Positions 11,220 to 29,241 are shown, numbered from the stretch's first letter. The stretch is DNA of 64,000 nt from an uncultured Acidimicrobiales bacterium (GCA_963842395.1 CAWJGJ010000002.1:6481-70480), one strand, 5' to 3'. Translations and numbers: made by a program. Notes: a model not told the origin generated them from the sequence alone.

Positions 11220-12380
11220 TCATCGCACGACGACGCGCACTCGTCCGAGGTTCAGGATCCGGCAGTGGGGCGTGCCCACGTCGACCGAGCGCTGGTTCGT
11301 GACGCGTACCGCCGGGAAGTACGTACCCGGCTCGGTGAAGGCAAGGGTGACCACCGAGGTGTAGCCCACGAGCGCCGAATCGAGACCGTCCTCAACGAGT
11401 GGGAACGCCGCGGTGCCGTCGAAGTCCCACGCCACCCCGACCACGCCCCCGGCACCGGGGGGGACCTCGATGTGCGCCTCGAACCGCACCTCGTCGCCAA
11501 CCGCCACGTCAGCACGTGCCGCGCCGTTGGCCGTGGCGCGCACCACGGCTTGGGGCCCACCCCGTTCCGCTGCGGTGTCGGGAACGTGCACCTGACCGTC
11601 GTCATACGTGTAGGCCGTATTTGCGGGCGGGGCGATGCCGAGCTCAACCCAGGCGGCAACGTCTCGCAGCGCCTGCTGGAGCACGCCGAGGTACGACACC
11701 ATTCGTGTCTTACGTGACGGGACCGTGTCGGGGAGGCTGAGTCCCGCGACCGGCTCTGCGCCGCCGGTGTGCATCGCGTGCTCGACGAACCAGAGCCGGT
11801 ACTGGTCGTCCATCGCGTCGCCGAGCTGGGCTTCGACCTTCTTGCGGTACCAGAGGGCCTGCCACGGGTACGCCGCTTCGTCCATCAGCGTCTGGACGAC
11901 GATCATCTTCCCGGCGAAGCGGCCGGACTGGCTGACGCCGGACCCTTGCCGGGCCATGATCGGGCCGATCTTGCGCGGTTGCTGCGGGTAGATCGGGTTT
12001 CGACCCTCGCAGAACTGCTGCCACGGCTCGAAGTCCGGGTCGACCTGGTGTCGGTGCATCGTCTGGAATGCCAGGTAGATCGAGTTGTCGACGAGCAGTT
12101 CGTCGCCGACCGCCACCTCCGCAAGCTCCTCGAAGTGGAGCTCGCCCATCCCGACGATCACGATGTCACCGCGAGTGCCGGTGAGGTACATGGCGTGCCC
12201 TGCTGCGTTGCCAGTGAGCAGCTCGATCCTGGCGCCGAGGGCCTGGCCCTCGACAGGCTCCGCGACACCCCCCGCGTCGCCCTCCTCCGATCGTTGTCCG
12301 GCACCCTCACTTTCCGTACAGTGATCTCTACTCACTGGGACGAGAGGGAGACCCTGGGAGGAGGAGGGGAGCGGTGCCAC
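11220..12380 (-). CDS. C-terminal portion of a larger hydrolase-like protein, probably 5'-truncated
   Basis: The ORF is open to 12380, where it overlaps the start of the opposite-strand gene at 12374. The GKMIVVQTLMDEAAYPWQALWYRKKV..DDQYRLWFVEHAMH region resembles the C-terminal half of roughly 700 aa alpha/beta-hydrolase-like proteins as I recall them. No nucleophile-elbow region is present, and the first in-frame ATG is at 12191. Confidence 0.45.
   Translation of the reverse strand: MAPLPSSSQGLPLVPVSRDHCTESEGAGQRSEEGDAGGVAEPVEGQALGARIELLTGNAAGHAMYLTGTRGDIVIVGMGELHFEELAEVAVGDELLVDNSIYLAFQTMHRHQVDPDFEPWQQFCEGRNPIYPQQPRKIGPIMARQGSGVSQSGRFAGKMIVVQTLMDEAAYPWQALWYRKKVEAQLGDAMDDQYRLWFVEHAMHTGGAEPVAGLSLPDTVPSRKTRMVSYLGVLQQALRDVAAWVELGIAPPANTAYTYDDGQVHVPDTAAERGGPQAVVRATANGAARADVAVGDEVRFEAHIEVPPGAGGVVGVAWDFDGTAAFPLVEDGLDSALVGYTSVVTLAFTEPGTYFPAVRVTNQRSVDVGTPHCRILNLGRVRVVVR
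12294..12321 (+). promoter_or_regulatory. candidate sigma-70-type promoter for cluster gene A (TTGTCC-16 nt-TACAGT)
   Basis: TACAGT at 12316-12321 fits the actinobacterial -10 TANNNT. TTGTCC lies at 12294-12299. The surrounding CTCAC.TT.CGTACAGT element recurs upstream of gene B. Confidence 0.3.
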
Positions 12381-13792
12381 CTGTCCAGACCGACAGGAAC
12401 GCCCAGTACGGGCCGCCCCTGGTCAACCAGAAGTACACCCCGCTGGCCAACGTCGTGTGGGCGCCGGCGGACACGCCGTTCTACAGCGGGCTGCTCGACT
12501 TCCGGCGCAACACCCTGTGGAACGCGAACTACCTGCCCAAGCCGCTGATGCTGCAGGCCCGCAACTGGGCCGCCATCGATGCCGCCGAGTCCGGCGTCGG
12601 CCGCCAGCCCCCGCTCGTGGTCGTGTCCAGCAACCGGGCCAACTGGATCGCCGGCGGCCTGGCCGCGGCGGACCTCGAGATGAACATGCAGAACGGCGGC
12701 AACAACTTCGCCGGCCCCAGCGACTTCCACGCCCTGGCCGCCTTCAGCGGGCAGAACCGGTCTTCGCCCATCTACACCCCCTGCCGGCAGGGCCCCGTCG
12801 TTCCCGGTGGGCCCACCCGCGGTGTCTACGTGGTCGTCCACGCCTCCGAGTACCAGACCTACCAGGCGGCGCTCGACCCGCCCGGTGCGCCCACCGGCAT
12901 CACCGTGATCGGCTGGGACTTCCAGCGCCCGACCAACGCCCACCACTGGATCATGGGCTTCGGGGCCAGCCGCTTCGCCGCTATGGAGCTCTGCAAGGAC
13001 CTGCGGGGCCGGCGCAACGCCACCTGGAACAAGACCTGGCTGATCGACGACAACGTCGTCTACGTCACCAACTTCCCAGGCTGGAACGCCATCGAGGTGG
13101 CGATGAACGCCGCGCCGGTGGCCTCGGCGGCCGCCTTCGTGGGCGGGACGCTGGCCGAGCCGTTCGCCGCGGCCCGCAACTACGCCCGCGCCAACATCAA
13201 CCTGGCGCCGCCGGCCGCGGCGCCGGCGGTTCCGCCGGGGGCGGGCATCATCCAGCAGCTGGCCTGCTGGAACGTCGACAATTTCAACGCCAACCGCCGG
13301 AACTTCGGGGTGGTGTTCCTGGCGTCGGCCGAGGACCTCAGCATGACCAACCTGTTCCTCCAGCAGGGCATCCCCTACCGCTTCTACGGGAACATGCGGG
13401 TGGAGAAGGAGGTGGCGGCCCCCGACGGCGCCATCGCCGCGGGCAACCACCGGCGCGGCTTCAACGCCTGGATCACCGGCCTGGAGAGCACCGCGGCAGC
13501 GGCCCCGGGAGCCAACCCACCGCCCCCCATCCAGGTGCAGCCGGCCAACCCGGGAGACGGCGGCGTGCAGCTGCTGAGCGACTACATCGTCAACCGGGTG
13601 CTGCCCAACTCCATCCAGCAAGCCCGGGCCGGGGTGGTGGCGGTGCAGAACGAGGGCAAGTCGCACGGGGTCGAGCAGATCGCCACCGGCGCGATCCAGC
13701 GGGGTTGGGTCGCCCCGGCCACGATCCAGCGGACGTTCCAGCTCAACGGCCCGGCCACGTTCCAGCGCGTGGTCCGCGTGACCCGGGCCTGA
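12374..13792 (+). CDS. uncharacterised protein A (472 aa), tandem paralog of B
   Basis: GTG 12374 after GGAGGAGGAGGGGA, with strong GC3 bias. About 60% identical by eye to the next gene. No known motif; alternating beta/alpha-like pattern (PPLVVVSSN, GVYVVVHASEY, ITVIGWDF, TWLIDDNVVYV). Confidence 0.8.
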   Translation: MPPVQTDRNAQYGPPLVNQKYTPLANVVWAPADTPFYSGLLDFRRNTLWNANYLPKPLMLQARNWAAIDAAESGVGRQPPLVVVSSNRANWIAGGLAAADLEMNMQNGGNNFAGPSDFHALAAFSGQNRSSPIYTPCRQGPVVPGGPTRGVYVVVHASEYQTYQAALDPPGAPTGITVIGWDFQRPTNAHHWIMGFGASRFAAMELCKDLRGRRNATWNKTWLIDDNVVYVTNFPGWNAIEVAMNAAPVASAAAFVGGTLAEPFAAARNYARANINLAPPAAAPAVPPGAGIIQQLACWNVDNFNANRRNFGVVFLASAEDLSMTNLFLQQGIPYRFYGNMRVEKEVAAPDGAIAAGNHRRGFNAWITGLESTAAAAPGANPPPPIQVQPANPGDGGVQLLSDYIVNRVLPNSIQQARAGVVAVQNEGKSHGVEQIATGAIQRGWVAPATIQRTFQLNGPATFQRVVRVTRA

Positions 13793-13824
13793 CGATGCGG
13801 GGATGACGCGTCCGCCAGAGGGCA

Positions 13825-13854
13825 TTGCGGACGATACCTCACGTTGCGTACAGT
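13825..13854 (+). promoter_or_regulatory. candidate sigma-70-type promoter for cluster genes B-G (TTGCGG-18 nt-TACAGT)
   Basis: A second copy of the CTCACGTTGCGTACAGT element lies in the 229-bp A-B spacer, with TACAGT at 13849-13854. Confidence 0.3.
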
Positions 13855-14021
13855 TCTCACCACTCGACAGCGCGGCGGCGTAGGCGGGCTGTCGAGGCAG
13901 GCGGCAGACATCAGGAGAAGAGGCGGCCCGGGGTGGTCCGGGCCGAGGCAGCCACGTCGGGCGGGTCGTCAGGCCGCGCCCGGGCACCTGTGGCGGGGCC
14001 GCGCGCCCCGGAGGGGGAGCG

Positions 14022-29106: not shown

Positions 29107-29160
29107 GACCTGAAGACGGTCGCGGCCCGTGCCCAGCTGACGACGAGTGTTCTTCGGACA

Positions 29161-29176
29161 GGCCTCCTGAGAGGCC
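29161..29176. terminator. GC-rich hairpin (GGCCTC-CTGA-GAGGCC), possible bidirectional terminator
   Basis: Perfect 6-bp stem 55 nt after the gene G stop and just 3' of the tRNA-Gly fragment on the other strand. A related hairpin follows the intact tRNA-Gly at 38221-38243. Confidence 0.35.
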
Positions 29177-29189
29177 CCTGATCTGCGAC

Positions 29190-29241
29190 GTGTGGAGCGG
29201 ACGACGGGATTCGAACCCGCGACCCTCACCTTGGCAAGGTG
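29190..29241 (-). repeat. tRNA-Gly(GCC) 3' fragment, att-type direct repeat
   Basis: 52 nt are identical to 38254-38305, which is the 3'-terminal 49 nt of the intact tRNA-Gly plus 3 nt. The flank including the hairpin is also similar, about 80% by eye. Confidence 0.85.

Follow-up and report, generated by a model that had tools for sequence, protein, structure and literature searches.

We analysed a window of 64,000 nucleotides from an uncultured Acidimicrobiales bacterium (GCA_963842395.1, CAWJGJ010000002.1:6481-70480), in which seven consecutive genes, designated A to G, form an operon at 12374–29106. Judged by sequence comparison with other genomes, the conserved unit is not the set of seven genes. 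It consists of C, D, and E together with a fibre gene, accompanied by an exchangeable enzyme slot directly 5' of C, which A and B occupy here. We propose, with a probability of roughly one half, that the product of the operon is a modular payload-scaffold-fibre complex, neither phage-derived nor of the toxin complex (Tc) type, which would deliver enzymes or toxins. This proposal draws on genomic logic and two structure models, from which we infer the assembly, the export, the target, and the toxicity of A and B.

Operon layout and the conserved C-D-E core

Gene A (12374–13792, 472 residues) begins with GTG and encodes a TAGT-like, putative GT-A glycosyltransferase; together with its paralogue B (14022–15428, 468 residues), which encodes a second such protein, it fills the variable payload slot. 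Gene C (15428–19825, 1465 residues) encodes the DUF6603-bearing signature protein of the cassette and is followed by the genes for two conserved core proteins, D (19822–22233, 803 residues, without a known domain) and E (22233–26132, 1299 residues, or 1236 from an alternative start at 22422). The last two genes are F (26129–27916, 595 residues), for a long fibre-type protein, and G (27913–29106, 397 residues), for its short fibre-type paralogue. All seven lie on the plus strand, and their translations are uninterrupted, each with a single terminal TGA. According to the coordinates, stop and start codons overlap at the five junctions from B to G (TGATG, in which the stop of B overlaps the start of C, then GTGA, GTGTGATG, GTGA, and ATGA), and the 229-bp gap between A and B (13793–14021) is the sole spacer. 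An earlier note, made from the DNA of this window alone, had described seven intact same-strand open reading frames (ORFs), and translation reproduced all of its lengths, coordinates, overlaps, and the spacer. The strong coding bias reported there is equally evident: the GC content at third codon positions (GC3) is 0.95–0.98 in each of the seven genes, in a window of ~72% GC, while the A-B spacer is flat with 0.71–0.76 by codon position.

An alignment of C homologues was scanned against one genome per GTDB species and returned at least 594 C relatives among at least 600 matching stretches, distributed over many bacterial phyla and one archaeal metagenome-assembled genome (MAG). We counted synteny in the best 80 of the at least 594 loci, using tblastn with A to G as queries. 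In 68 of these 80 loci, C is directly followed on its own strand by homologues of D and E, their order unchanged; the order is permuted in three, cut by a contig end in seven, and unclear in two. The 80 loci include Actinomycetota (Streptomyces, Frankia, Nonomuraea, Kribbella, Nocardia, and others), Pseudomonadota (Pseudomonas, Burkholderia, Collimonas, Azospirillum), Bacteroidota, Acidobacteriota, Planctomycetota, Cyanobacteria, Chloroflexota, Gemmatimonadota-like MAGs, and one Methanoculleus MAG, and the closest cassette relatives of the window operon are Streptosporangiaceae MAGs. The C-D-E layout was also found in separate look-ups of Nonomuraea, Embleya, Angustibacter, Corallococcus, Ruegeria, and Kitasatospora, and stop and start codons overlap in other cassettes as well, that of Embleya being one example. 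A permuted order, D-E-F-payload-C, occurs in two Bacteroidota loci (L073, L075) and one Nonomuraea locus (L084). Conserved synteny, for which the earlier note proposed a test, was found for C-D-E plus the fibre gene; the position of A and B proved to be an exchangeable enzyme slot.

Mobility of the cassette is suggested by its occurrence on megaplasmids and beside transposases or an integrase. Homologues of E reside on ten plasmids, including pSCL4 of S. clavuligerus and two Paenibacillus plasmids (Bacillota), where the RefSeq partners are all named 'hypothetical protein'; a tblastn search of 50,697 phage records found no E relative. The notion of a self-contained accessory module agrees with these locations and with the C-D-E order in 68 of 80 loci. 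In the Methanoculleus MAG (L020, 6078–18929), C-D-E is 35–37% identical to that of the window, and an F-type gene lies upstream, not downstream; contamination or mis-binning is possible for this archaeal assignment.

The DUF6603 domain of C (PF20248; 17630–19183, plus strand, residues 735–1252) matches Pfam with 473.7 bits at a cut-off of 27, covering profile positions 1–501 of 502. Conservation in the C alignment peaks in this domain, which has 43 invariant columns. DUF6603 is a catalogued family without an assigned function, and our literature search found no paper mentioning its name. The domain is preceded by a beta-rich N-terminus (~1–690) and a Pro-rich linker (~689–727) and followed by a small C-terminal beta domain and a disordered tail. 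The model of C (residues 266–1465, built with 19 homologues) has a mean predicted local distance difference test score (pLDDT) of 74, rising to 80–95 in the DUF6603 part, and a predicted template-modelling score (pTM) of 0.50. It consists nearly entirely of long antiparallel beta-strands, with the linker before DUF6603 and the tail disordered. Foldseek retrieved 17 matches at E ≤ 1e-3 for this model, among them the SlpA 30-strand barrel, the ApoB100 beta-belt, the FimD/PapC ushers, and LptD. As the TM-scores are 0.1–0.25, the likeness is one of topology, that is, of giant meander sheets or barrels, and not of homology. No Tc or RHS cocoon appeared in the top 50 matches.

Protein D has conserved N-terminal (~1–420) and C-terminal (~520–800) regions with 27 invariant columns in a 40-sequence alignment, and comparisons by hhalign disclosed no relationship of D to E or to C. 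Pfam scans of 40 D and 32 E homologues gave no recurrent family. We found 137 homologues of E; among the 120 listed, those named by their source are all 'hypothetical' except for one 'discoidin domain-containing', and discoidin or TIG domains occur on a few. E begins with a non-conserved Pro-rich N-terminus, followed by a multidomain alpha/beta body with a long helical hairpin. Its model (residues 84–1283, 60 homologues; pLDDT 90.7, pTM 0.87) shows several beta-sandwich-like domains, helical bundles, and a hairpin of ~45- and ~29-residue helices. Foldseek found nothing for it at E ≤ 0.001, either in the PDB, where the best match (E = 0.3) was driven by the likeness of the hairpin to the AcrA/TolC hairpins, or among the predicted viral structures of BFVD (best 0.83), and no Tc or RHS structure was among the matches. 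At the level of the modelled chain, the fold of E is unprecedented in PDB and BFVD. Of the three giant proteins anticipated to be beta-rich, C is modelled as all-beta, while E is modelled as mixed alpha/beta with long helical hairpins. The public gene call of E starts at M64 (nt 22422; P0053). The 5' extension has a GC3 of 0.95 and a GGGGA upstream of the ATG at 22233, while M64 lacks a ribosome-binding site, which makes the long, coupled start plausible and more likely, though not certain.

The DUF6603 domain was the sole Pfam match in A to G. NCBIfam gave nothing significant for the seven proteins, with a marginal match of C to TIGR02963 (E = 0.3), and PADLOC-DB 2.0.0 contained no defence family for A to G at E ≤ 1, a negative that is not conclusive because this version dates from 2023. 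Six of the seven had no match in PHROGs, and B had a marginal one to an unannotated family (E = 0.23). Sequence and family-profile searches of the PDB returned nothing for C, D, E, or the A family, and a broader literature query beyond the DUF6603 name turned up nothing relevant. Hydropathy and N-terminal inspection revealed no transmembrane helix or signal peptide in A to G, as the earlier note had observed. Its view that the proteins have no recognisable function holds for six in Pfam, NCBIfam, PADLOC, and PHROGs, and has to be amended for C, which carries DUF6603. Phage sheath, tube, baseplate, capsid, and portal signatures are absent according to Pfam and PHROGs, and RHS or Tc-toxin signatures according to Pfam and NCBIfam, in agreement with the first inspection. 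The statement that the proteins match no described system likewise withstood searches of PADLOC, PHROGs, NCBIfam, PDB sequences, and PDB and BFVD structures.

Proposed payload slot, fibre-type genes, and genomic surroundings

Directly 5' of C, at least 12 unrelated families take the same position in 26 loci. The gap between the slot gene and C ranges from −28 to +217 nt and falls within −3 to +34 in 20 of the 26, and in the permuted loci the slot gene still abuts C. The occupants include a ribosome-inactivating protein (RIP) in Nonomuraea longicatena (24.6 bits at a cut-off of 21), Exo_endo_phos in Gimesia (42 bits) and, as a weak precomputed match, in Corallococcus, metallo-beta-lactamase (MBL) folds (a weak match, with Lactamase_B also seen), Trypsin in Kitasatospora, and DUF4135 in L006 and L039, the closest relatives of the window. 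In two further families, the WN...SDHxP motifs of the endonuclease/exonuclease/phosphatase (EEP) type are visible by eye; MBL motifs, too, can be seen in families beyond those with Pfam matches. D and E of L006 and L039 are 45–69% identical to those of the window. The D of L006 is 68–69% and its E 67% identical, yet the locus carries another slot gene, and its C aligns only from residue 416. Judging by this pattern, the payload gene may be swapped as one unit with the N-terminal region of C. Specificity of the C N-terminus for A-type payloads was ruled out, since the same N-terminal type stands beside EEP-type payloads (L001, L053, L065, L070).

The slot resembles a polymorphic toxin locus in that unrelated modules (RIP, EEP, MBL, trypsin, DUF4135, and TAGT-like) are exchanged at a fixed position. 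The other arrangement expected of such loci, a C-terminal toxin fusion with an immunity gene, was not found, the payload being a separate gene upstream of C. The enzyme types in the slot overlap those reportedly common in the polymorphic toxin systems that Zhang et al. are said to have described in 2012. No candidate for a small ORF was identified in the 229-bp A-B spacer. The slot of the Embleya locus L085 (4908–9945) holds three tandem paralogues of ~550 residues with faint hemopexin-repeat matches, a triplet that parallels the A/B duplication in the window. DUF6603 proteins of 2300 to more than 3255 residues also occur (L088 of Ruegeria meonggei, 1–6825; P0014; P0138), in which payload or adaptor modules may be fused to C.

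In the window, the slot is occupied by paralogues that are 62% identical, as had been suspected, and a repeat search of the window links the A and B region by direct repeats D2–D4, D7, and D10. Exhaustive phmmer searching of 1.84 billion proteins yielded 153 representative relatives of A. The Pfam family TAGT (PF20691) is matched by 48 of 89 aligned relatives (best E 3.9e-8), and D225-D226 (DDN), Q294-Q295, and D321 are invariant in 89 of 89 A-family sequences. An 11-sequence alignment of the A/B family contains the invariant ordered motifs PPLVVVSSNR, VYVVVH..EY, GFGASRxAA, WxxDDNV, QQxxWN, and SAEDxS, whose order by eye resembles that of a GT-A glycosyltransferase; the PDB profile search with the A family was negative.

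A-family genes stand directly 5' of DUF6603 genes in eleven loci (L002, L004, L008, L012, L013, L017, L019, L021, L024, L090, and L091). The relative in L091 is pre-annotated as TAGT, and the N-terminus of the adjoining C homologue aligns to residues 5–557 of the window C. Two distant members of the family (≤35% identical), the one in L091 included, thus lie directly 5' of a DUF6603 gene, one of the two coming from a low-GC organism and being pre-annotated as TAGT; this points to the glycosyltransferase branch as a dedicated cassette partner. TAGT enzymes occur in T-even-type phages, and one of them probably attaches a second glucose to glucosyl-hydroxymethylcytosine (PMC13390438). To such enzymes, for example the second glucosyltransferase of T6-like phages (PMC13390438), the A/B family is related, and it appears to share with them the GT-A-like motif order with an invariant DD. 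In contrast, A and B have ~470 residues, belong to cellular genomes rather than phages, and lie beside a DUF6603 gene, not beside TET/JBP or hydroxymethylase genes. No TET/JBP dioxygenase or base-hypermodification gene was found in the window or the loci inspected, where the constant neighbour is the DUF6603 gene.

The upstream regions of A and B share an 18-nt motif. The copy at 12305–12322 (CCTCACTTTCCGTACAGT, plus strand) lies 52 nt before the A start. It includes a -10-like TACAGT and could serve as promoter or operator of A; the second copy at 13837–13854 (CCTCACGTTGCGTACAGT, plus strand) lies 168 nt upstream of the B start. The pattern CCTCACnTTnCGTACAGT occurs twice in the window, before A and before B, with zero occurrences expected in shuffles. 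Its presence before both genes suggests that the upstream control region was copied along with the gene in the A/B duplication and that A may have a transcript distinct from that of B to G. The motif was not found upstream of payload genes in other loci.

F and G, which the earlier note took for fibre-like paralogues, are 36% identical over 396 residues, with ~190 extra N-terminal residues in F. F is composed of an N-terminal domain, an Ig-like domain, a beta-helical repeat stretch, a globular C-terminal domain, and a helical tail; G lacks the first of these, and neither has a Pfam match of its own. An F/G-type gene follows E in ~34 of the 80 loci, and a long and short pair is also present in L006 and L039. 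The 43 BLAST-linked members of this family, encoded 3' of E, have N-terminal domains in common and differ in their distal parts. These distal parts comprise a Peptidase_S74 intramolecular chaperone in the Pyrinomonadaceae locus L011 (47 bits), a concanavalin A (ConA)-like Laminin_G_3 domain in members from two loci, and Lactonase-type propellers in others. The F-family profile also matches 9cuy, a 'putative tail fiber protein', weakly (E = 0.0013) through the beta-helical repeat region. The position 3' of E, the S74, ConA-like, and propeller ends, and the weak 9cuy match all support the earlier idea of a fibre-bearing assembly.

Upstream of the operon, an ORF on the minus strand (11220–12380) contains the C-terminal part of a tannase/feruloyl-esterase domain and a PKD domain. 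The N-terminal part is absent, and the 5' end of the ORF runs into the start of A, as if the insertion of the operon had truncated it. Downstream lies a ~53-nt 3' fragment of tRNA-Gly at 29190–29242, identical in 54 of 55 nt (98%) to the 3' part of tRNA-Gly(GCC), of which an intact gene is located at 38257–38332. The two copies are 9 kb apart and bracket a sugar-utilisation block (29.2–38.3 kb), not the operon. The block contains LacI, a solute-binding protein, two permeases, a frameshifted glycoside hydrolase family 3 (GH3) gene, and a xylose-isomerase-like TIM-barrel gene; none of the ORFs scanned in it showed an integrase domain, and it looks like an att-type scar around ordinary-looking metabolic genes. 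A location of the operon inside a tRNA-Gly-bounded island was ruled out on these grounds, since the operon adjoins an att-like scar and does not lie within the repeat-bounded segment. An older tandem insertion of the operon, the far end of which was lost, is possible. The att-type fragment named earlier as the operon boundary is thus real, although its two copies bracket the neighbouring block. The GH3 gene on the minus strand is split between 30519–33548 and 31169–32014: one frame encodes the N-domain and the first part of the C-domain, another the remainder of the C-domain and an Fn3-like domain. This arrangement indicates a frameshift near 32.0 kb and corroborates one of three such genes claimed before. 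Just beyond the intact tRNA-Gly gene, a very GC-rich stretch holds at 39298–39642 a tandem array of 8.2 copies of a 42-nt unit (85% matches), which would encode 14-residue repeats if translated.

Proposed delivery and its alternatives

In the proposed delivery complex, C, D, and E would form the conserved structural core, with the N-terminal region of C holding an exchangeable enzymatic payload encoded by the gene or genes directly 5' of C, here A and B. The conserved N-terminal part of F and G would anchor to the core, and their variable distal part would bind the target surface. B to G may be co-translated in fixed proportions via the coupled stop and start codons, with A driven by its own promoter-like element. 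The particle would be released without a Sec signal, possibly by lysis; its fibres would then bind a target cell, and the enzyme would act on or in this target as a toxin. In the case of A and B, one possibility is a toxin glycosylating nucleic acid or another macromolecule in the target cell. A delivery particle fits the coupled and conserved core, the fibre family with lectin-type tips, the slot with toxin folds, and the patchy, partly plasmid-borne spread across phyla. The enzymes of the slot have classical toxin folds, namely RIP, DNase I-like EEP, MBL, protease, and glycosyltransferase.

Several observations weigh against this proposal. No immunity-like ORF lies beside A or B, and no secretion or lysis gene was identified; as A to G are also without a signal peptide or transmembrane segment, the proposal lacks an export route. 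Cassettes with a short C (~850–920 residues) and no adjacent upstream enzyme gene exist on a Paenibacillus polymyxa plasmid and in Streptomyces sp. NBC_01276, so a cassette can do without a payload, and the core may be functional by itself. Because the same N-terminal type of C also accompanies EEP payloads, the covariation of C N-terminus and payload does not hold exclusively and could in part be due to common ancestry. Neither A nor B itself matches PF20691 at E ≤ 1 or reaches the Pfam threshold, which would place them in a divergent branch of the TAGT-like family. Known TAGT enzymes modify phage DNA (PMC13390438), and such a DNA-modifying pedigree is not a classical toxin activity. The confidence of the C model is only moderate.

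Some of these observations would be accommodated by a non-toxic extracellular or surface assembly, an adhesin, fibril, or cellulosome-like enzyme-display scaffold, which we regard as unlikely though worth serious consideration. C-D-E would then be a scaffold, the fibres would bind a substrate or surface, and the variable enzymes would act on environmental polymers or alter the structure itself, as A and B might by glycosylating the fibres. The lectin-like, propeller, discoidin, and TIG modules on F-type and E-type proteins suit such a role, as do the hydrolase-type folds (EEP, MBL, trypsin) and the glycosyltransferase in the slot, the lack of immunity genes, and the cassettes without payload. 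However, a RIP in the slot has no obvious non-toxic role, and the enzyme types overlap those said to be common in polymorphic toxins. A glycosyltransferase needing nucleotide-sugar donors would be inactive outside the cell, and A to G show no signal peptide, sortase motif, or transmembrane anchor. That none of the seven carries an export signal fits an intracellular anti-phage or abortive-infection system. Here, C-D-E and the fibre-like proteins would sense an invader, whereupon the variable enzyme, as effector, would act on nucleic acids or ribosomes, with A and B glycosylating DNA like their phage TAGT relatives. TAGT enzymes belong to phage-host conflicts over DNA modification (PMC13390438), and the patchy spread across phyla on plasmids and near mobile elements, together with the effector-like variability (nuclease-type EEP and MBL folds, protease, N-glycosidase), is in keeping with defence. 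We nevertheless hold it to be improbable, and slightly more so than a surface assembly: A to G have no PADLOC match, inconclusive as this is for a database of 2023, Pfam detected no NTPase, STAND, nuclease-sensor, or other typical sensor domain, and the hallmarks of putatively trimeric fibres, like the lectin/discoidin modules, argue for a target outside the cell.

A degenerate prophage tail, tailocin, or extracellular contractile injection system (eCIS) module, with F and G as tail fibres and C, D, and E as diverged baseplate- or tape-measure-like proteins, appears very improbable to us. The S74 chaperone in an F/G homologue, the weak match to a solved tail-fibre protein, and the tRNA fragment adjoining the operon would agree with it. 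Against this stand the absence of significant PHROG matches for A to G and of Pfam sheath, tube, baseplate, spike, portal, capsid, or terminase domains, a confident E model without a neighbour among predicted viral structures, and the lack of E relatives in the phage records. Moreover, the cassette is kept as a stand-alone unit of four to seven genes on chromosomes and plasmids of many phyla. Among the adhesion, toxin-delivery, and phage-derived particles considered in the earlier note, toxin or enzyme delivery is consequently favoured, and a phage-derived particle is disfavoured by the missing PHROG, BFVD, and phage-record matches.

Should the core deliver enzymes, it would add a further architecture beside Tc, eCIS and type VI secretion system-like, umbrella, and contact-dependent inhibition systems, reaching hundreds of soil and aquatic species that include Streptomyces, Frankia, Pseudomonas, Burkholderia, Paenibacillus, myxobacteria, cyanobacteria, and Bacteroidota. 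A role would be assigned to DUF6603 and two large families of 'hypothetical proteins', with at least one fold (E) that appears new. The payload slot would offer a catalogue of candidate effectors, including an unexplored TAGT-like glycosyltransferase branch, and a swappable cargo with a swappable fibre resembles the combinations through which other delivery particles became useful as programmable protein-delivery tools. Even if the toxin interpretation fails, a conserved cross-phylum cassette of 15–17 kb without a known domain marks a testable gap in knowledge.

Comparison with known systems

Like the Tc (ABC) toxins of Photorhabdus, Xenorhabdus, and Yersinia, the cassette is an operon of several very large proteins without ATPases or Sec signals and combines a conserved, putative delivery scaffold with a hypervariable enzymatic component. 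C, as a large all-beta component, could enclose or hold cargo as in Tc toxins. The differences are substantial. The VRP1, SpvB, TcdB_mid, and RHS domains are absent from A to G (Pfam, NCBIfam), and the C model retrieves no Tc or RHS cocoon among its top matches. The payload is a separate gene 5' of C and not the C-terminal region of TcC, and the cassette has fibre proteins.

Umbrella (Umb) particles of Streptomyces carry the toxin domain fused to the UmbC C-terminus and trypsin-like/lectin UmbA spokes on the ALF-repeat protein UmbB (PMC11062931). These actinobacterial particles unite a polymorphic toxin and diversified appendages with lectin tips on a scaffold of repeats and are present in hundreds to ~1000 species (PMC11062931). 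The cassette is similar in having two variable positions, for a putative toxin and for a lectin. By description, it is set apart by its components, which are DUF6603, D, E, and F, by the absence of trypsin and lectin Pfam matches in the window, by gene sizes and order that differ from those described (PMC11062931), and by a spread far beyond Actinobacteria. The eCIS and tailocins are accessory, horizontally spread loci of environmental bacteria and some archaea, and they share with the proposed particle the fibres, a variable toxin cargo, and release without classical secretion signals (PMC8213781). Unlike them, the cassette has no sheath, tube, baseplate, spike, AAA+ ATPase, significant PHROG match, or viral structural neighbour.

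The logic of the cassette thus appears comparable to that of Tc toxins, eCIS, and umbrella particles, although the proteins appear to be unrelated. D, E, and the F family have no Pfam family, the defence, phage, and toxin-complex models gave no match, and we found no publication on them. The system seems to be new in kind, with a function suggested by genomic logic and the two modelled structures. With somewhat less than an even chance, it may be a new class of delivery nanomachine, occurring in bacteria as well as in at least one archaeon and without evolutionary kinship to phage tails, Tc toxins, umbrella particles, or secretion systems. In this class, a DUF6603 giant would dock interchangeable enzymes through its N-terminus, two giant proteins of unprecedented fold would complete the body, trimeric fibres would select the target, and a TAGT-like pair would be the cargo of the operon described here.

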